Notes under the pieces: model-generated
The model's input: only the letters and a program-made list of their open reading frames with translations
Databases searched by the model: none
What the model was told of the DNA's origin: nothing
Program-made: the position numbers and the translations under genes
Part shown: positions 3,453-17,382 of the stretch, one piece after another
Numbering within the stretch: the first letter of the stretch is position 1
Layout of the letters: each line of letters starts with the position of its first letter
Source of the DNA: a virus
Strand: one strand, 5' to 3'
UHGV virus genome: UHGV-0221571
DNA: 17,382 nucleotides

Positions 3453-5060
3453 TTAATTTATCTTTTCAACATTTCCATGAATCAACAAGTCGTAGGCAAG
3501 AAATAGTTTCCTATACTGGGTTTTTAAATTGTCAACGTCGCATGTCTTGAATTGAACAAACGCTTCTTTTTTAACATAATCTTCAATCTCCTCTTTGGGG
3601 ATATTTTTTATGTTCTTAATGACTATAGACAATTCTTTGTACTTTTTGAACTTTGCATCCTTTATATCTTTGATGTTGGTGTAAATTTTATTTGCATTGA
3701 TTTTATCTAAGGTGATTTTATTGAGCAAGTCGTCTAGTTTTCCGTGGCGTTCAATGCGTTGATTTAGTTTTAACACATATTTAGCTGGCAAACTTAACTC
3801 TTTCAAATTACATGAGGTTATAGTTTTTGAAAATGGAAGTTGTAATGAGTTTACTGAACCTAATATGAAATCTATGGCTAATTTATTAGATATTTCATTT
3901 TTATTAAATAAGTAGTCTTCAAGATAATTTATTTCTTTAACTTGTGTGAATACATACTTTTTATCGCCTAGAGCAACAACTAAATTTTTTCCTTGTTTAA
4001 CACTTTCTTCAAGTCTGTCTAAGTCAGAAGGTGAAACCAATAGAGTATCTAAGTGCCCTTTTTCACCCTCATTAATGATAAGTGTTTTAATGGCTCTTTG
4101 ATACCTTAAAACATCATAAGGTGAGAGCCCTTCATCAACAGCACTGATCTCATCATAGATCTGTTTATAGTTATCTGTTTTAACAGATGTATATGTAATT
4201 TGTAGCTGTTGATCGGTAATCTGTTTTGGTACTACTTCCTGTTCATTCTCTTTATATTCAATCAAAATTATTCTTTCAGCTGATTTTCGACCATCTTCTC
4301 TAGGTAGTTGTGAGGAAAAATCAGAAAGAAGTTTCTTTACATTCCTGTCAGTTAAAGAATATCCAAGAAAAACTATTGGATTTTTAATCATGTTAGATAG
4401 TATCTTGGCACTAATGAGTATAGATTTGTTGTCATATTTTTCGTAATCATCTTTATTTATGATTATTGAGTGTGGATCCTTTATATCACCATGTATTTTG
4501 TATAACTCACTCCAGCCAATAGTATCTTCGAAAAAACCATTATTTCCAATATAGAGTTTTGGAGTTACATTTTGCTCTTGAAGTAAATTTTCTATGAAAG
4601 CATCATAATTTGTAGTGATGATTATCTTGGCCTTTTTTATTAATGTTTTAAATGATGCTAATTCATCAAGATTTACATCCTTTCTGATTGTGTTATTAGA
4701 AAATCTTTGGCATATGGCGTATTTAAATGGTGAAATATCTTCACTAAAAACCCTCTTGGCATCTAGTCCATTTAATTTTAATTTGCCAGTCCTAAACAAT
4801 AGATTGTAATCATTTTCAATTTTACTTGCTGCCTCTGTATAAATCTTATGATCGATATCATTATCACTGTTATTTTTATGTGATTCTTTTATTGTTAAAA
4901 GATAACTATAGAAATCATTTGTGGGATTTGTTATTTTCCAATACTCGTTTAATAGCTCTTCCCACGTTGGGTAGTTCTCTAAATATCTTTTTGAAATGCC
5001 TGAGCCAATAAAGACTATTGGGTAATTTTTGAATTCAAAATTTTTTTTTGACATATCCAT
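3453..5060 (-). CDS. SIR2-like (defense-type SIR2_2) NADase-domain protein with an uncharacterised ~270-aa C-terminal domain
   Basis: 535-aa ATG-initiated ORF with AAGG 5 nt upstream. Motifs GSGIS (res 19-23), TTNYD (149-153), KIHGD (188-192) and FLGYSLTD (231-238) match the conserved blocks of defense-associated SIR2 domains such as ThsA. Visibly AT-rich relative to its flanks. Same strand as, and directly downstream of, the repressor. Confidence 0.75.
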   Translation of the reverse strand: MDMSKKNFEFKNYPIVFIGSGISKRYLENYPTWEELLNEYWKITNPTNDFYSYLLTIKESHKNNSDNDIDHKIYTEAASKIENDYNLLFRTGKLKLNGLDAKRVFSEDISPFKYAICQRFSNNTIRKDVNLDELASFKTLIKKAKIIITTNYDAFIENLLQEQNVTPKLYIGNNGFFEDTIGWSELYKIHGDIKDPHSIIINKDDYEKYDNKSILISAKILSNMIKNPIVFLGYSLTDRNVKKLLSDFSSQLPREDGRKSAERIILIEYKENEQEVVPKQITDQQLQITYTSVKTDNYKQIYDEISAVDEGLSPYDVLRYQRAIKTLIINEGEKGHLDTLLVSPSDLDRLEESVKQGKNLVVALGDKKYVFTQVKEINYLEDYLFNKNEISNKLAIDFILGSVNSLQLPFSKTITSCNLKELSLPAKYVLKLNQRIERHGKLDDLLNKITLDKINANKIYTNIKDIKDAKFKKYKELSIVIKNIKNIPKEEIEDYVKKEAFVQFKTCDVDNLKTQYRKLFLAYDLLIHGNVEKIN

Positions 5061-5166: not shown

Positions 5167-5859
5167 CTACCCATGTTTTCTATATGTCTGTGGCATGCTC
5201 CCAATAACTTTCCCAAATATAAATACCCGATTCATTTCGTCTTTTTCGATCGGGTCCCACGGTGAGTAGCTCTTGTTATCAGAGATAACCAGCAGCTTAT
5301 CCTTCATCATTTGCAGGCGCTTTACATGGGCTGTGTCGTCGTACAGAAACGCATAGATACCATCACCGTCGAAAGATTTAACAGTGATATCAACGAACAG
5401 AAGATCACCTGGTTCGATCGTTCCTGACATGCTGTCACCGCGTACGTTAATGATGCGGATATTTTCTGCCTTCCTGCCATCGAACATGTGACGAGCATCG
5501 TCAAACGAGTACTCAACCGAGCGTAGGACTTCTACAAACTCACGGTTGATGACACCCGGCCCAGCACTGACTTCTATATCAAGAACGTCAATTTTGAAGT
5601 ATTTGGAATGGTTGACAGCAGGCTTCCCTGATTGTTGACCGTCATTTCTCATCGGGCCTATGCCTGATGAGAGCCACTCTGTTCGAACACCCAATGCATT
5701 AGCTATTTCAACAATTTTTGTTGAGCCGCGTGCGTTGCCGCTTGTCAGTCTCCAGATTGTGGGTTGAGCTACGCCAGACGCCTTTGCAAGAGCGCCTTGA
5801 GACATTCCAGATTGTTCCATCGCTAGGTTTAAGCGATCAGCAAGAGTTTCTTTTTTCAT
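5167..5859 (-). CDS. CI-like prophage repressor (HTH N-terminus, S24/LexA-like autocleavage C-terminus)
   Basis: HTH region ...MSQGALAKASGVAQPTIWRL... and C-terminal S24 motifs (VRGDSMSGTIEPGDLLFVD, ...HVKRLQ...). The track ORF starts at TTG 5895; I place the start at ATG 5859 (MKKETLADRL...), which sits right after a -10-like TATAAA, i.e. a near-leaderless arrangement like lambda pRM. Confidence 0.85.
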   Translation of the reverse strand: MKKETLADRLNLAMEQSGMSQGALAKASGVAQPTIWRLTSGNARGSTKIVEIANALGVRTEWLSSGIGPMRNDGQQSGKPAVNHSKYFKIDVLDIEVSAGPGVINREFVEVLRSVEYSFDDARHMFDGRKAENIRIINVRGDSMSGTIEPGDLLFVDITVKSFDGDGIYAFLYDDTAHVKRLQMMKDKLLVISDNKSYSPWDPIEKDEMNRVFIFGKVIGSMPQTYRKHG

Positions 5860-5865
5860 AAGTTT

Positions 5866-5965
5866 TAATTTATACGCTTGCGTATTGATGGTCAAAACAC
5901 GTTTTGCTATTGATTGGATTAATACGCATTGCTATTATCCATTCATTGCAATACCAATAGGAATT
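5866..5965. promoter_or_regulatory. OR-like divergent promoter/operator region (pRM-like leftward, pR-like rightward)
   Basis: Perfect palindrome ATACGC-tt-GCGTAT (5872-5885) lying between a minus-strand -35 TTGACC (5895-5890) and -10 TATAAA (5874-5869). Plus-strand -35 TTGATT (5910-5915), 17-bp spacer, -10 TATTAT (5933-5938). TTGCTATT(G) copies at 5904-5912 and 5929-5936, 25 bp apart, overlap these elements. ATACGC half-site again at 5922-5927. Confidence 0.5.
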
Positions 5966-9264: not shown

Positions 9265-10296
9265 ATGTCCTCGAATATTTTATCTGGTGAAAAAGTAATC
9301 AATAAAATTGCTGAAAAGTTGAGCGATTATAAATATCCTCCGGCTGAAGGTATGAACTCTGAACATGTCAGCAAATGGATTAAGCAATTTGCAGTGGAGG
9401 ATAGACGATTTATCTTAGATGAAACGCTTTATCTACTTAATGCAGGTTACCTATCCGAAAGTCAATATCAACGAAAAATAAAAGCCATTGCAAGAAGTGA
9501 AAAGAACGCGAAATTCTTCAGATATGCAGGTTTTTTAGATATTCAAAAAAAAGGTTCTAGTCAGAAGGAATTGCTTAAATCTCTTTATGAAACAGTAGGG
9601 ATCAAATTTAACATCGTTACTGAATCATCAACTCAAGATGAAGTAAATAAATTTGATACATTTGTATATATTGATGATGTGTCGTTTTCAGGAGAAAAGG
9701 CCATCAAATCGATAAGTAATTTTGTTTTAAAATTTAATTTAAGAGATATTAAATTCAATGTATATTTTTTTTCATCTCATACGTTATCTGACTATAATAT
9801 AAAAAGACGATTAGAATATATTTTTAAGGATAGAAACATTTTTGTACACGTGAAGAATGGTGGTATGCGTGAGGTTGAAAACCGAAAAAGTCGTTCTGCT
9901 CAATCAGGTGTTTTCTGGCCAAGGAAATATAGTGTAGATACTCCCGAGAAATTCGAGGAGTGTGAGCTTTACAAAGGCGTATTCAGAGATGGATATGCCT
10001 CTTCTGATAGTTTTAGAAATGAAGCCTCAAGGGATCGTTTCGAATCTATCCTTACTAAAGTCGGCTTTAATATCTTGCTGCACAGGAAAACCCCTAGTGA
10101 GGTGCTCAAACCTCTAGGTTTTTCTACTTTTGACGGTTTGGGTTTTGGGGGAACAACATTTACTTATCGAAATTGCCCGAATAATGTGCCGCTGGCTTTT
10201 TGGTGGGGAGATTATGAACCAACAGGTGCTCCCGCATTGGACTGCTGGTATCCACTAATGAAGCGGAATGGGTATAATGAGTGGTATGAGCTATAG
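9265..10296 (+). CDS. Hypothetical 343-aa protein, AT-rich cargo gene; possible PRTase-type nucleotide-binding motif
   Basis: ATG 9265 with AAGGAA upstream in an AT-rich intergenic region. The stretch TFVYIDDVSFSGEK (res 132-145) resembles the PRPP-binding signature of type I phosphoribosyltransferases. No other family recognised. Translationally coupled to the NADAR gene. Confidence 0.6.
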   Translation: MSSNILSGEKVINKIAEKLSDYKYPPAEGMNSEHVSKWIKQFAVEDRRFILDETLYLLNAGYLSESQYQRKIKAIARSEKNAKFFRYAGFLDIQKKGSSQKELLKSLYETVGIKFNIVTESSTQDEVNKFDTFVYIDDVSFSGEKAIKSISNFVLKFNLRDIKFNVYFFSSHTLSDYNIKRRLEYIFKDRNIFVHVKNGGMREVENRKSRSAQSGVFWPRKYSVDTPEKFEECELYKGVFRDGYASSDSFRNEASRDRFESILTKVGFNILLHRKTPSEVLKPLGFSTFDGLGFGGTTFTYRNCPNNVPLAFWWGDYEPTGAPALDCWYPLMKRNGYNEWYEL

Positions 10297-12562: not shown

Positions 12563-12647
12563 AGTCAGAGATAACAATCAACTAATACTGTTTTATTGAT
12601 TTTTGCTTGTAATTGGCGTTCTGGTCTGATTTTTGTGGAGTAAGTTG

Positions 12648-13031
12648 ATGCGTGATATTCAGATGGTTCTTGAGCGTTGGGGAGCGTGGGCGGCTAATAA
12701 TCATGAAGATGTGACCTGGTCGTCCATTGCCGCCGGTTTTAAGGGATTAATTACTTCAAAAGTAAAATCTCGCCCGCAATGTTGTGACGATGACGCGATG
12801 ATTATTTGCGGGTGCATGGCCCGTCTGAAAAAGAACAACAGCGATTTGCACGATTTATTAGTAGATTATTATGTAGTCGGTATGACATTCATGTCACTGG
12901 CAGGTAAGCATTGCTGCTCTGATGGTTATATCGGGAAAAGGTTACAGAAGGCTGAGGGTATAATTGAAGGGATGTTAATGGCATTAGATATCCGGTTAGA
13001 GATGGATATCGTTGTTAATAACTCTAATTAA
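12648..13031 (+). CDS. quuD: Late-gene antiterminator Q (82/DLP12 QuuD type)
   Basis: ATG 12648 with GGAG 7 nt upstream. [62 protein letters not shown]..., Cys-rich as in Q proteins. Position after rusA/ylcG. Confidence 0.8.
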
Positions 13032-13082: not shown

Positions 13083-13170
13083 CAAAAATAAAGGGTAATA
13101 TATAACAGAAGGTTTGTATAGTTAGAAGCAAGGTTGTGCTTCTAAAGGAAGTGGCTTGAGGGAGCCACTT

Positions 13171-13219: not shown

Positions 13220-14302
13220 TTAGAACTGGTAAACCATACCTACAGCAACGATATCATCGGTAGCAACGCCAGATGCTTTCGTGAAATCGCTCTTATCAAT
13301 CAGGTTGATTTTGTAGTCAACAAAAGTGGACATATTTTTGTTGAAGTAATAGGTTGCACCTACATCAACATATTCAACCAGGTCCTGATCACCCCAAACA
13401 CCCAAGTCTTTTCCTTTAGAATGCAGGTAAGCAACGGATGGACGCAGGCCGAAGTCGAACTGATATTGTGCAACAGCTTCGAAGTTTTGTGCTTTGTTGG
13501 CAATATGGTTATTACCAAAAACAGTCATGTTCTGGGTTTCAGAATAGGTGGTGGCCAGATAGATGTTGTTCGCATCATATTTCAGACCAGCTGCCCATAC
13601 TTCAGCATTTTGACCAGAAGCATTCAGACCGTTGTTACCGTAGATAACCTGATTATTAGTGCGATCAGATTTAGCATAGGTTGCACCCACGCCGAATCCT
13701 TCATACTCATAAGTAGTTGAGAAACCGAAACCATCGCCATTAGCTTCAGTTACTTCATTTCGGTCATTTTTGCCCTGATACTGAGCTGCAAAGTTCAGGC
13801 CATCAACCAGACCAAAGAAGTCGTTGTTACGATAAGTTGCAACACCTGTGGTGCGACCAGTCATGAATACATCTGTTTGGGTCCAGGTATCGCCACCGAA
13901 TTCTGGCAGAACGTCAGTCCACGCACCGATGTCGTATGCTACACCGTAGTTACGGCCGTAATCGATTGAGCCGTAGTCACCGAATTTCAGGCCTGCAAAT
14001 GCAAGACGGGTTTTGTCTTTGGAGGAACCTTGAGATTCAGCGCGGTTGCCTTTGAATTCATATTCCCACTGACCGAAACCAGTCAGTTGATCGTTGATTT
14101 GGGTTTCACCTTTGAAGCCAAGACGGGCATAAGTAGTATCACCATCATCTGCATCATTAGAGGAGAAGTAGTGCTTAGCATTAACTTTCCCGTACAGATC
14201 CAGCTTGTTACTGTCTTTATTATAAATTTCAGCTGCCTGAGCAGACATCGCCATCAGTACTGATGCAGCTACAGCAGAAATTGCCACTGTTAATTTTTTC
14301 AT
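13220..14302 (-). CDS. nmpC: Outer-membrane general porin (OmpC/OmpF/PhoE family), prophage NmpC/Lc-type
   Basis: 360-aa product with signal peptide [23 protein letters not shown]|AEIYNK and C-terminal ...VAVGMVYQF ending in Phe. Typical porin sequence throughout. Sits between Q and the lysis genes as in DLP12. Confidence 0.9.
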
Positions 14303-15711: not shown

Positions 15712-16087
15712 GCTGGTTATTTCTGCTTTCCTCCTGACTTTATTCGGTTCTCTCGTCTGGTCAGCTAACCACTACCACAGCAAATACCAGCGCGAAAAGA
15801 AACGTGCTGATGAGGCTGTACAAAATGCCGAATCGGCAACCGCTATTACCAATAACGTCCTGCAATCACTGCAAATCGTCAATACAGTTCTGGAGGCTAA
15901 CCAGCATGCAAAACAGCAGATCGCACTGGAGTCACAGAGAACCCAGGCTGATATCAAAGTGGCTGTTGCGGATGATGATTGTGCTGTACGCCCTGTGCCT
16001 GCTGCCGCTGCTGACCGGTTGCGAAAGTTCGCGGACAGTTTACGTGCCAGTTCCGGCTATACCGTTACCGGCGAGTCTGACCGCTGA
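15695..16087 (+). CDS. Rz: Rz-like inner-membrane spanin (i-spanin)
   Basis: From ATG 15695: MKLRYKLVISAFLLTLFGSLVWSANHYHSKYQ..., an N-terminal TM anchor followed by a charged helical region. Overlaps the end of R. The track ORF starts 33 nt earlier. Confidence 0.65.
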   Translation: MKLRYKLVISAFLLTLFGSLVWSANHYHSKYQREKKRADEAVQNAESATAITNNVLQSLQIVNTVLEANQHAKQQIALESQRTQADIKVAVADDDCAVRPVPAAAADRLRKFADSLRASSGYTVTGESDR

Positions 16088-16247
16088 AACCCCGCAACCA
16101 GCCATTTCTGAACCGCTGACTTATGCGGGTAGCCTAGATTTGAATGTCAGTCTGTTGTCGGCGCTAGGGCAGTGCAATCTGGATAAAGCGGGGATCAGAA
16201 GGATAGAGGCGAGCCGGTCAGGTAGAAGTGAATCAGGCTCAAAGTGA
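15972..16247 (+). CDS. Rz1: Rz1-like outer-membrane lipoprotein spanin (o-spanin), +1 frame relative to Rz
   Basis: MMIVLYALCLLPLLTGC... signal with lipobox LLTG|C, followed by a Pro-rich mature region (VPVPAIPLPASLTAETPQP). Begins inside Rz and extends about 160 nt past its stop. Confidence 0.55.
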   Translation: MMIVLYALCLLPLLTGCESSRTVYVPVPAIPLPASLTAETPQPAISEPLTYAGSLDLNVSLLSALGQCNLDKAGIRRIEASRSGRSESGSK

Positions 16248-16317
16248 AGCGGAAAAGGTCTTCGGCATAAGGTGACGTAGTAATAATTACAGTCAACTGA
16301 CTTTTGGAACGAAGCAT
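16195..16317 (-). CDS. Candidate 40-codon ORF with a consensus Shine-Dalgarno, downstream of the T7/SP6-like promoter pair
   Basis: Minus strand: TTAAGGAGGTTCAAC-ATG (AGGAGG, 6-nt spacer). Product MLRSKSQLTVIITTSPYAEDLFRFTLSLIHFYLTGSPLSF, stop at 16197-16195. Antisense to the 3' end of Rz1. Below the ORF-track cut-off. Confidence 0.3.
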   Translation of the reverse strand: MLRSKSQLTVIITTSPYAEDLFRFTLSLIHFYLTGSPLSF

Positions 16318-16360
16318 GTTGAACCTCCTTAATTGATGTTATTTGAGTGAGGAAGGCATT

Positions 16361-16443
16361 CTGTCCTTCTAAAGTGTCACCTAAATCAAGTAGGCAACTC
16401 GTCCAACGCGTTGGACATGCCTCCCCATTAGTGAGTCGTATTG
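16361..16443 (-). promoter_or_regulatory. Tandem T7-like and SP6-like single-subunit phage RNA polymerase promoter sequences flanking a 16-bp palindrome
   Basis: Minus strand 5'-cAATACGACTCACTAATGGGGAGG (plus 16443-16421) against T7 TAATACGACTCACTATAGGGAGA: 14 contiguous identities at -16..-3. Minus strand 5'-ATTTAGGTGACACTTTAGAAGG (plus 16386-16365) against SP6 ATTTAGGTGACACTATAGAAG: one mismatch. Palindrome GTCCAACGCGTTGGAC (16401-16416) between them. Confidence 0.5.
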
Positions 16444-16583
16444 ATTGCGACTCTTCAAAGAATTCATTACTGGAGATATGAAAATGGTTTCACTACGTAT
16501 GGAGGAGGCTGTGTTTATCAGTCCCGCAGGTATTCAATGGGTGCCTGCAATAATGTTTGTGGCGGTAAACGTGTCGTGATGGG

Positions 16584-16617
16584 ATTTTGGTGTCTCGAAA
16601 GCAAAGGAGACACCAAA
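16584..16617 (+). promoter_or_regulatory. Perfect 12-bp inverted repeat enclosing the RBS of the downstream small gene
   Basis: TTTTGGTGTCTC (16584-16595) - gaaagcaaag - GAGACACCAAAA (16606-16617). The SD AAGGAG (16601-16606) lies in the loop/right-arm junction, and the ATG (16618) immediately follows the right arm. Confidence 0.45.
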
Positions 16618-16812
16618 ATGAACTATTCAAACATTATCTGCCCAACCAACCGTCTGCAGGTGACCATTCTGCATGAAAAAGATGTGCTGACTGGTATCGG
16701 TGATGCCATCGGCGAATTGCACACATACCAATGTTCACGGGAGCACGTGTGCAGCTATAGAGAAACGACGGAATGTATTGTAAGAAAGCGGGAGATTCTT
16801 CAAAACAGGTAA
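16618..16812 (+). CDS. Small Cys-containing hypothetical protein (64 aa)
   Basis: ATG 16618 with AAGGAG 11 nt upstream. MNYSNIICPTNRLQVTILHEKDVLTGIGDAIGELHTYQCSREHVCSYRETTECIVRKREILQNR. Followed by a hairpin terminator. The longer track ORF (16441 onward) starts at TTG with no RBS. Confidence 0.5.
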   Translation: MNYSNIICPTNRLQVTILHEKDVLTGIGDAIGELHTYQCSREHVCSYRETTECIVRKREILQNR

Positions 16813-16822
16813 GAACAATCAA

Positions 16823-16852
16823 AGCCATCGGTTATCAACCGGTGGCTTTTTC
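16823..16852 (+). terminator. Intrinsic terminator after the small gene
   Basis: Stem AGCCATCGG / CCGGTGGCT (one G-U pair), 7-nt loop, then TTTTT. Confidence 0.5.
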
Positions 16853-16864
16853 ATTGGAGTAGAT

Positions 16865-17215
16865 ATGCCGCCACGAACACCAAAAGCCTGCCGCGTTCGC
16901 GGTTGCCGCAATACCACTACTGACCCGTCAGGCTATTGCGAAAGCCATAAAAGCGAAGGCTGGAAGCAATACAAGCCAGGACAATCTCGTCATCAGCGCG
17001 GTTATGGTTCGAAGTGGGATGTTATCCGCGTGCGTGTCCTGAAGCGTGACAAAGGCCTGTGTCAGCTATGTCTGCGTGCTGGTGTGGCGCGTGAAGCGAA
17101 AACCGTTGATCACATCATCCCTAAAGCACATGGCGGCACTGATGCCGACAGTAATCTGCAGAGTCTGTGCTGGCCGTGTCATAAGGCGAAGACGGCCCGT
17201 GAACGGCTTAAGTGA
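16865..17215 (+). CDS. HNH homing-type endonuclease (terminase-associated HNH of cos-packaging phages)
   Basis: 116-aa product with an N-terminal Cys cluster (CRVRGC...C) and HNH core VDHIIPKAHGGTDADSNLQSLCWPCHKAKT. GGAG 6 nt upstream. Lies immediately before a terminase-like start. Confidence 0.85.
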   Translation: MPPRTPKACRVRGCRNTTTDPSGYCESHKSEGWKQYKPGQSRHQRGYGSKWDVIRVRVLKRDKGLCQLCLRAGVAREAKTVDHIIPKAHGGTDADSNLQSLCWPCHKAKTARERLK

Positions 17216-17241
17216 TAATAACTCTCAACTGTCTGAGGGGA

Positions 17242-17301
17242 GGGGCGGGTCAAATCTCTGTGACCTGACGTCTTCCGGACTGCCCGCCCCATCGTTTTTT
17301 T
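17242..17301 (+). terminator. GC-rich long-range stem followed by a T7 run; terminator-like or packaging-site-proximal structure
   Basis: GGGGCGGG (17242-17249) ... CCCGCCCC (17283-17290), followed by ATCGTTTTTTT (17291-17301). Confidence 0.4.
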
Positions 17302-17340
17302 ATACCCGCGAAAAATGAAATTTAACCAGGAGTGCCGCAT

Positions 17341-17382
17341 ATGGCTGGAACGGCGGGGCGTTCCGGGCGTCGCCCCAAGCCA
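17341..17382 (+). CDS. 5' end of a probable terminase small subunit; gene continues beyond the window
   Basis: ATG 17341 with AGGAG 8 nt upstream. MAGTAGRSGRRPKP..., a basic N-terminus typical of small terminase subunits. Position after the HNH gene. Confidence 0.35.
   Translation, partial: MAGTAGRSGRRPKP

Follow-up and report, generated by a model that had tools for sequence, protein, structure and literature searches.

The window, by which we mean the whole stretch of 17,382 nt that was analysed, belongs to an HK97/SfIV-type prophage. Its genes run in the order Q (12633-13031), holin, lysozyme, Rz and LysC, followed by the module described here, an HNH endonuclease gene (16865-17215) and a gene for a P27-family small terminase. 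The features at and around the module are the following.

15972-16247, plus strand: lysC, the Rz1-like o-spanin gene of the prophage lysis cassette (RefSeq annotation; Pfam LysC, E=1.8e-15)
16153-16194, minus strand: ~42 nt after the ORF40 stop codon, antisense to the QCNLDKAGI motif of LysC
16195-16317, minus strand: ORF40, 40 codons from ATG to TGA, translation MLRSKSQLTVIITTSPYAEDLFRFTLSLIHFYLTGSPLSF
16323-16331, minus strand: Shine-Dalgarno (S-D) sequence TAAGGAGGT, 5 nt 5′ of the ORF40 ATG, assigned from sequence
16352-16369, minus strand: small 5′ stem-loop of the SP6-type transcript, GAAGG-ACAGAAUG-CCUUC, in both the MFE and the centroid fold
16364-16386, minus strand: SP6-group (Zindervirus-type) promoter, -17 to +6, predicted +1 at 16369; ATTTAGGTGACACTTTA, then GAAGGA from +1
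16394-16421, minus strand: hairpin starting at +3 to +6 of the T7-type transcript, GGCAUGUCCAACGCGUUGGACGAGUUGCC, with a core palindrome at 16401-16416
16421-16443, minus strand: T7-group (Berlinvirus-type) promoter, -17 to +6, predicted +1 at 16426; CAATACGACTCACTAAT, then GGGGAG from +1

The initial annotation had described a near-ideal S-D and spacing ahead of this minus-strand frame, and both are present: TAAGGAGGT is a 9-nt complement to the 3′ end of 16S rRNA, and ORF40 opens with TTAAGGAGGTTCAAC-ATG. The overlap that it had seen with the end of Rz1 on the other strand is also there, the last 53 nt of ORF40 being shared with the 3′ end of lysC, where they correspond to the last 17 lysC codons. 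The signal peptide with its lipobox Cys and the LysC domain are encoded by the plus-strand gene at 15972-16247; ORF40, on the other strand, has none of these o-spanin features, and lysC is a neighbour that lies outside the promoter/ORF40 module. The late operon of the prophage runs antisense to ORF40. A small plus-strand ORF at 16445-16579 (MKMVSLRMEE...) is not conserved, since the alignment shows that it stops after 6 codons in other alleles.

Conservation of the reading frame and selection at the codon level, which had been suggested as a check on ORF40, both favour a gene. ORF40 is intact, with S-D, ATG and an open 40-codon frame, in 101 of 101 evaluable IMG/VR copies, which were ascertained only via a 21-nt motif in the 5′ UTR. 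Read as indicative and not tree-corrected, given related sequences with a synonymous divergence of ~0.1 and ~28 variable sites, pN/pS in the ORF40 frame among 27 nucleotide haplotypes is 0.15 over codons 20-40 as against 1.65 over codons 2-19. Across the overlap, LysC-frame pN/pS is 4.1, and other frames range from 3.6 to 4.1, except for a stop-containing antiparallel frame that shares third positions. In the antiparallel register of the two genes, position 3 of ORF40 codons is position 2 of LysC codons, and LysC position 3 is ORF40 position 2. The last 17 codons hold 28 segregating sites in 21 haplotypes from 132 loci, which were anchored on DNA 3′ of the stop codon and hence independently of coding; 16 of the sites fall at third, 6 at first and 6 at second positions of ORF40 codons (binomial p=0.008), and this stretch encodes 9 distinct peptides in the ORF40 frame versus 20 tails in the LysC frame. 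These patterns indicate that codons 20-40 are under purifying selection in their own frame and that the LysC overlap is unconstrained. The pN/pS above 1 in the N-terminal half could reflect an arms race or simply a lack of constraint.

Conservation of ORF40 as a by-product of LysC coding is excluded by the frame-specific substitutions, and by LysC remnants that are 5′-truncated or stopped. In a third genomic context (L050, L056, L097 and others) the LysC frame carries a TGC-to-TGA stop and only about 42 nt of LysC antisense are left, with ORF40 unchanged; in the iss/bor context the LysC remnant lacks the lipobox half. Because ORF40 is unchanged where LysC is interrupted and the substitutions are frame-specific, the C-terminal motif of the peptide appears to be kept for the peptide's own sake. 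The LysC-antisense remnant is common to all family members, and ORF40 was probably born by overprinting the 3′ end of lysC. We conclude that ORF40 is, with high probability, a real small-protein gene whose translation is predicted from its sequence.

The conserved C-terminal motif is F-x-L-S-L-I-H-F/Y-Y-L-T-G-x-P-L-S/T-F. From an alignment of 14 sequences, AlphaFold2 models residues 3-34 as one helix (mean pLDDT 77; 87-91 in the C-terminal half). The initial view of the C-terminal half as fairly hydrophobic holds only weakly: the best 19-residue Kyte-Doolittle mean of the peptide in the window is 0.90, below the usual transmembrane threshold of ~1.6. The corresponding values are 1.40 for the major E. 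coli allele and 1.83 for the Klebsiella form. By this measure the E. coli peptides (0.9-1.4) are not clearly transmembrane and the Klebsiella homologue is above the threshold; a membrane location is plausible for some forms of the peptide. No family in Pfam, PHROGs or PADLOC matches the two E. coli peptides, and the Klebsiella peptide has a marginal match (E=0.019) to a PHROG family to which no function is assigned. When 1.84 billion representative proteins were searched exhaustively with an HMM, only the small ORF40 family was recovered. Because its hydrophobicity is sub-threshold and it lacks a Pfam, PHROGs or PADLOC match, toxicity of ORF40 is a guess.

T7-group promoters have a 23-bp consensus from -17 to +6, in which specificity resides at -12 to -8. 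The T7-type site, followed slightly further downstream, reads CAATACGACTCACTAAT and then GGGGAGG. It agrees with the phi17 promoter region of the Berlinvirus PhiV-1 at 27/28 bases, including the atypical AT at -2/-1, and its core, ACGACTCACTAATGGG, is identical (16/16) to the PhiV-1 promoter core, of which PhiV-1 has 16 sites. The SP6-type site matches the consensus of Zindervirus genomes, ATTTAGGTGACACTATAGAAG, at 20/21 positions; the difference is an A-to-T change at -3, and the Zindervirus UAB_Phi78 has a natural -3 variant of its own. Against the UAB_Phi78 promoter at 13094-13127 the match is 32/34, with six flanking bases on each side included. Because the match extends into both flanks, it indicates captured phage DNA rather than convergence. 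Each site occurs once in the window, versus 0.01 (T7-type) and 0.00 (SP6-type) expected from 200 shuffles. By sequence, both sites are authentic Autographiviridae promoters at which initiation is predicted. A crude consensus scan of 15800-17382 predicted no sigma-70-type promoter on either strand, which is a weak negative. That the ORF would be the first product of the promoter module, as originally proposed, fits well with these data, as ORF40 is tied both physically and evolutionarily to phage-type promoters.

Comparison of 43 distinct upstream haplotypes (124 loci) showed that variation is clustered at the positions that determine promoter specificity. At the second site, the sequence ATTTACTGGACACTATAGAAGG is the commonest in E. 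coli, being carried by most alleles, and it is the consensus of K1E and K1-5 (Vectrevirus), phages with about eight promoter copies per genome. In the reverse test, the authentic K1E promoter with its K1E flanks matched 607 of 5,426 E. coli genomes, at a median of one place, and the match lay inside the module in all four genomes for which coordinates were compared (NZ_CP032789.1, NZ_CP028674.1, NZ_CP086490.1 and NZ_CP019361.1). As far as checked in these four genomes, the K1E promoter type in E. coli chromosomes thus appears confined to the module. The common T7-like allele, ATACAACTCAC, has no exact counterpart among deposited phages. One allele (L008) has undergone a tandem duplication, giving four promoters; alleles L018-L020 carry AATTACGACTCACTATTGGGAAAG together with a perfect SP6 consensus; and one copy (L011) is decayed and has lost its promoters.

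The 13-bp stem of the hairpin downstream of the T7-type promoter is 92% paired across 12 alleles, with 3 pairs changed on both sides (for example, CCAA/UUGG to CUCA/UGAG) and G.U at its base. None of 500 shuffles equalled the observed values, and slid controls gave 32-47%. The G.U pairs at the base of the stem would be C.A mismatches if read on the other strand. Given these pairs and the compensatory changes, the hairpin pattern supports the view that RNA is made from the strand of ORF40. The same palindrome stands beside promoters in the lytic phages Kp7 and K1-5, and half of the hairpin is lost in one copy of the module (L029). The small stem-loop of the SP6-type transcript is present in nearly all E. 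coli-type alleles, and the S-D is mostly unpaired in the predicted fold of this transcript. A structured non-coding RNA was considered and rejected: the 371-nt transcript scores z=+0.38 against shuffles, and the leaders fold weakly better, at z=-1.6 to -1.9. Rfam 15 gave no match at gathering score in the window, and a miRNA match outside ORF40 is at chance level (E=4.2).

The sequence downstream of ORF40 depends on the context, which is LysC, iss/bor or a third type. Comparison of three kinds of junction showed that, downstream, the ~42 nt after the stop codon alone are shared by all genomic contexts; they may serve as a 3′ UTR or as an anchor for recombination. Hence, only the promoters, the S-D, the mini-ORF and these ~42 nt are constant across contexts. 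A constant downstream effector gene was also considered and rejected, as the neighbours vary (iss/bor, a 125-aa PHROG protein, a 112-aa protein or antisense lysis genes). The T7 class II stop signal (ATCTGTT) is absent from the minus strand between ORF40 and the next minus-strand gene. A translated leader, which the initial annotation had offered as the other possible role of the ORF, is unlikely, because the downstream sequence differs by context while the C terminus of the peptide is conserved at the amino-acid level.

Protein searches identified ORF40 homologues of 37-40 aa in Klebsiella prophages, for example MLKISLLSTIVNHKITFAVIYFLLSLIHFYLTGSPLSF, and in two further lineages. Three tandem elements lie 5′ of the Klebsiella genes. 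Element 1 is K11/Przondovirus-like or Berlin-like (AATTAGGGCCCACTATAGAGACC, ATTAAGACTCACTATTGGGAAGG and others), and nearly all of its matches are to Klebsiella phages. Element 2, CAATAGTGGCGAGTATAGAAC, is identical to the consensus that 13 sites give in Kp7, a Molineuxvirinae phage of Klebsiella, and comes with the palindrome GGGCTTGTCyAACACGTTGGACA, which in Kp7 precedes the promoter just downstream of the RNA polymerase gene. Element 3, TTTAATGTTACACGAGTAGGAA, is a candidate promoter found at 21/22 positions in >200 KP34/Drulisvirus-type Klebsiella phages. The tandem promoters are of types that belong to two Autographiviridae subfamilies in E. coli and to three in Klebsiella. More distant lineages (L139-L141) have the palindrome, one or two Kp7-type sites, GGAGG and ATG, and a strong S-D at proper spacing is found in all five peptide lineages despite their unrelated leaders. 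By sequence, the promoters are matched to the host's own phages, with Klebsiella modules carrying Klebsiella-phage sites.

A 401-bp region around the module is present at 100% identity in many independent E. coli chromosomes, and at 97.8% identity in Shigella phage SfIV. Of 5,426 complete E. coli genomes, 632 have related copies at 83-91% identity, as a rule a single one, corresponding to a prevalence of ~12%. Module copies are also found in IMG/VR contigs and Klebsiella prophages, and the Klebsiella form of the peptide is recorded in 563 blocks of an assembly collection; the taxonomic breadth given here is based on E. coli genomes, IMG/VR and protein collections. The initial annotation had considered that the consensus ribosome binding site (RBS) might be part of an engineered expression module, and the sites do superficially resemble laboratory T7 and SP6 promoters with a consensus RBS, as would be expected of contamination by a cloning vector or engineered cassette with a pGEM-like T7/SP6 pair and a synthetic RBS. 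We reject this reading and leave it practically no probability, as it is already refuted by the distribution: the same or related copies occur in hundreds of independent chromosomes, in phage SfIV, in IMG/VR contigs and in Klebsiella prophages. Moreover, the two promoters are in tandem and point in the same direction, rather than being convergent; both sites are closer to natural Berlinvirus and Zindervirus promoters than to the laboratory consensus; and the flanking DNA consists of prophage genes. The hallmarks of a laboratory dual-promoter vector, namely exact T7/SP6 consensus sequences, convergence around a polylinker and a vector backbone, were not found.

We propose that the SfIV/HK97-like prophage holds a 'promoter trap' between its lysis cassette and its HNH/terminase genes, with ORF40 as the protein output. 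The tandem promoters were captured from lytic Autographiviridae, here a Berlinvirus (T7-group) and a Zindervirus (SP6-group), each promoter being followed by a 5′ stem-loop and then by the consensus S-D and the 40-codon gene. In the lysogen the cassette would be silent, because it offers no promoter to the host RNA polymerase and the prophage's own late transcription would be antisense to it. Upon superinfection by a T7-, SP6-, K1E- or KP-type phage, the single-subunit RNA polymerase of that phage would transcribe the cassette. T7-type RNA polymerase is an early product and keeps working while the phage inhibits the RNA polymerase of the host. Ribosomes would then produce large amounts of a helical 37-40-aa peptide with the invariant C-terminal motif, and this peptide might kill or arrest the cell (abortive infection, possibly via the membrane) or block a phage function; an abortive outcome would protect sister lysogens. 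Replacement and stacking of promoter alleles would retune which phage polymerases are sensed.

The steps of this model differ in how firmly we hold them. Expression of ORF40 from the phage promoters during superinfection is likely, judging from the promoter and start-signal sequences. The full model, in which the polymerase of a superinfecting phage switches on an anti-phage or abortive-infection peptide, is inferred from architecture, and we give it a probability of roughly 0.55. On the more general proposal, that temperate phages of Enterobacteriaceae carry a modular immune sensor that can be rapidly retuned, consisting of captured Autographiviridae promoters and a conserved, overprinted 37-40-aa effector ('promoter as receptor'), we are evenly divided. 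The promoter alleles (Berlinvirus, Teseptimavirus-like, Zindervirus, Vectrevirus, Przondovirus, Kp7-like and Drulisvirus), with their stacking and duplication, would record an arms race between polymerases and promoters. An effector peptide of the promoter module, as the initial annotation had suggested, is the best-supported interpretation of a selected ORF that is coupled to phage-type promoters.

An alternative is that the promoters matter and the peptide does not, the function lying in transcription or RNA and ORF40 being a translated leader that stabilises the RNA. The locus might then be a polymerase sink, an origin-like element or a source of antisense RNA against the lysis genes, or it might provide read-through into minus-strand cargo (iss/bor, porin or KAP NTPase). 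The primary origin of T7 consists of two tandem phage promoters just after gene 1, and in Kp7 the block of palindrome and promoter that was copied into Klebsiella modules directly follows the RNA polymerase gene, beside a second promoter and a repeat-rich stretch. Minus-strand cargo genes are found downstream in several contexts, and the absence of ATCTGTT before the next minus-strand gene is also as expected for read-through. However, purifying selection acts on the amino acids that codons 20-40 encode in the ORF40 frame, and the strong S-D and ATG are retained in five lineages whose leaders are unrelated. The downstream genes are inconstant, with only antisense genes for 3 kb in some contexts; the whole transcript is no more stably folded than its shuffles and matches nothing in Rfam; and one chromosomal copy would be a poor polymerase sink. 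We therefore consider a role confined to transcription or RNA unlikely.

Two other readings accept less of the architecture or turn it to another end. The cassette might help the prophage outside defence, through escape or induction triggered by the invader's polymerase, through lysis timing, or by using the lytic phage as a helper. Its constant position between the modules for lysis and packaging, beside HNH/terminase genes or other terminases, fits this, as does the clear exchange of module parts with lytic phage DNA; but the module faces away from the packaging genes and lies antisense to those for lysis, its sole constant product is the 37-40-aa peptide, and no satellite-like or packaging functions are linked to it, so that we regard a benefit of this kind as improbable. 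Still less credible to us is a non-functional scar, in which pieces of intergenic DNA from lytic phages entered the end of lysC by recombination and it is by chance that the antisense frame has no stop. The phage flanks on the promoter blocks do point to direct DNA capture, a 40-codon open frame is by itself not rare, the N-terminal half of this one shows no purifying selection, and decayed copies are known, with promoters (L011) or half the hairpin (L029) lost. Against a scar, ORF40 is intact in every evaluable copy, the C-terminal half has a pN/pS of 0.15, and substitutions fall mostly at third positions, each of which is a LysC second position. The architecture is found again with other promoters across two host genera and five lineages of the peptide, compensatory changes are seen in the hairpin, and about 12% of complete E. 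coli genomes retain the module.

The proposed defence module resembles several known systems in part. Among the latter are the type I toxin-antitoxin toxins Hok, Ldr, TisB and Ibs. Like such toxins and small abortive-infection peptides, ORF40 is very short, helical, partly hydrophobic and encoded on a mobile element, with expression that would be tightly restricted, and it is presumed to be harmful to cell or invader when made. Unlike them, it shows no sequence similarity to the known toxins, and the E. coli peptide is not clearly transmembrane. Type I toxins are controlled by antisense RNA, whereas the proposed control of ORF40 is the invader's RNA polymerase acting on captured promoters; the sigma-70 scan of 15800-17382 on both strands, crude as it is, and the search for Rfam sRNAs revealed no antisense antitoxin with a host promoter.

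The late promoters of satellite P4 are activated by the Ogr protein of P2. Genes of the integrated virophage mavirus reportedly carry the late-promoter motif of the giant virus CroV, as Fischer and Hackl are said to have described in 2016. By analogy, the module would be a resident element that stays silent until an incoming virus brings the transcription machinery for its promoters. For mavirus, the result is that the host population is protected. The module differs from both in that its sensor would be a stack of promoters for the single-subunit polymerases of unrelated lytic phages, copied with their flanks, and in that its output would be one mini-protein rather than a whole replicating element, with no sign of mobilisation of the module. 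In 1997, Djordjevic, O'Sullivan, Walker, Conkling and Klaenhammer reportedly built a Lactococcus suicide cassette in which a phage-inducible promoter was fused to a lethal gene. ORF40 may be arranged in an analogous way, with a phage-specific promoter driving a lethal or protective gene that is silent without infection. The Lactococcus cassette, unlike the module, is synthetic and needs a phage-encoded activator of host RNA polymerase, whereas the ORF40 module is natural, widespread and apparently multi-sensor, and would use the phage's own polymerase. In its order of promoter, 5′ stem-loop and AAGGAGG-type RBS, the module is like late genes of the T7 and SP6 groups, as seen before PhiV-1 gene 17 and UAB_Phi78 genes. 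In contrast to those phages, it resides in an HK97/SfIV-like prophage, which is temperate and has no gene for such a polymerase, and it places the promoters of two or three polymerase families in tandem before one gene.

We know of no bacterial defence system that senses a virus via the specificity of its polymerase for viral DNA copied by the host. If the proposed model is true, the module would be a natural antiviral sensor that reads the specificity of a viral RNA polymerase rather than a protein or nucleic-acid ligand. It would also account for the ability of a lysogen to respond after a T7-type phage has shut down host transcription, with sensing immune to the shut-off, and it would predict host-range effects for therapeutic T7-, SP6-, K1E-, KP32- and KP34-like phages. 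What makes the locus of interest is that its promoters are copied from lytic phages, matched to the host, variable in allele and always coupled to one conserved mini-gene. ORF40 would also be a simple, testable case of gene birth by overprinting, and the module offers ready-made orthogonal 'phage-detector' parts; standard phages and polymerases that are on the market suffice to test every step. The searchable full-text literature yielded no description of the module, and it appears to be a means of infection sensing that has not been described before. The prophage sRNA svsR (PMC12803456) is encoded at a different locus, at cI.

Across all loci compared, codons 2–19 of ORF40, the 40-codon gene of the promoter module, fall into five or more versions with unrelated sequences; these codons encode the N-terminal half of the peptide. 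Within E. coli, pN/pS for these codons was 1.65. We conclude that the variation at the N-terminus of ORF40 reflects either diversifying selection or replacement of this segment along with the promoter cassette. In one E. coli locus (L008; NZ_CP019361.1, positions 1501–2062), the promoter block is tandemly duplicated, resulting in four phage-type promoters. The duplicated blocks differ in their SP6-like variant (ATTTACTGGACAGTATAGGGGGG and ATTTACTTGACACTATAGAAGG), and both the S-D sequence and the ATG are degraded in the upstream copy.

The palindrome of the prophage modules, TGTCCAACACGTTGGACA, is also found in intergenic regions of two lytic phages of the Molineuxvirinae, at the following positions:

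5880–5920, Klebsiella phage Kp7 (L130/L138), palindrome
9569–9603, phage K1-5 (L131), palindrome

In Kp7, the RNA polymerase gene is followed directly by the palindrome, and then by a promoter. A repeat-rich stretch lies near the Kp7 palindrome, and may be an origin.

Downstream of the phage-type promoters, along their direction of transcription, lies a position occupied by cargo genes. The window carries a complete porin gene here, flanked by the gene for antiterminator Q (12633–13031) and the holin gene; in related prophages, the cargo at the same position is instead a KAP NTPase, a DUF3800 protein or something else.

13220–14302, minus strand, Gram-negative porin (Porin_1, E = 3.6e-152)

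The immunity region includes a SIR2-like gene that is probably a defence gene expressed in the lysogen. The gene for the CI-type repressor, on the same strand, directly adjoins it.

3453–5060, minus strand, SIR2-like protein of 535 aa (Pfam SIR2_2, E = 1.2e-23)
5167–5895, minus strand, CI-type repressor with HTH and S24 peptidase domains

In a search for T7 class II terminators, the heptamer ATCTGTT was found four times (three on the plus strand and one on the minus strand) in a 67-bp segment (4159–4225) that lies inside the SIR2-like gene; the count for the whole window, five, does not exceed that expected by chance.

Between the module and the HNH endonuclease gene, the window has a plus-strand block (16588–16812) in which a perfect hairpin, GGTGTCTCgaaagcaaagGAGACACC, precedes a 64-aa ORF. 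We found this block in the window and in two of the compared loci (L001 and L003), but not in Shigella phage SfIV or most other alleles, where the module is directly followed by the HNH gene. Beyond the HNH gene, a G/C-rich inverted repeat, GGGGAGGGGCGGG...CCCGCCCC, separates it from the small terminase gene.

16618–16812, plus strand, 64-aa ORF (PHROG 31491, function unknown)
17228–17300, G/C-rich inverted repeat

This inverted repeat may be the packaging site, since the interval between the HNH and small terminase genes is where the cos of HK97-type phages is located.
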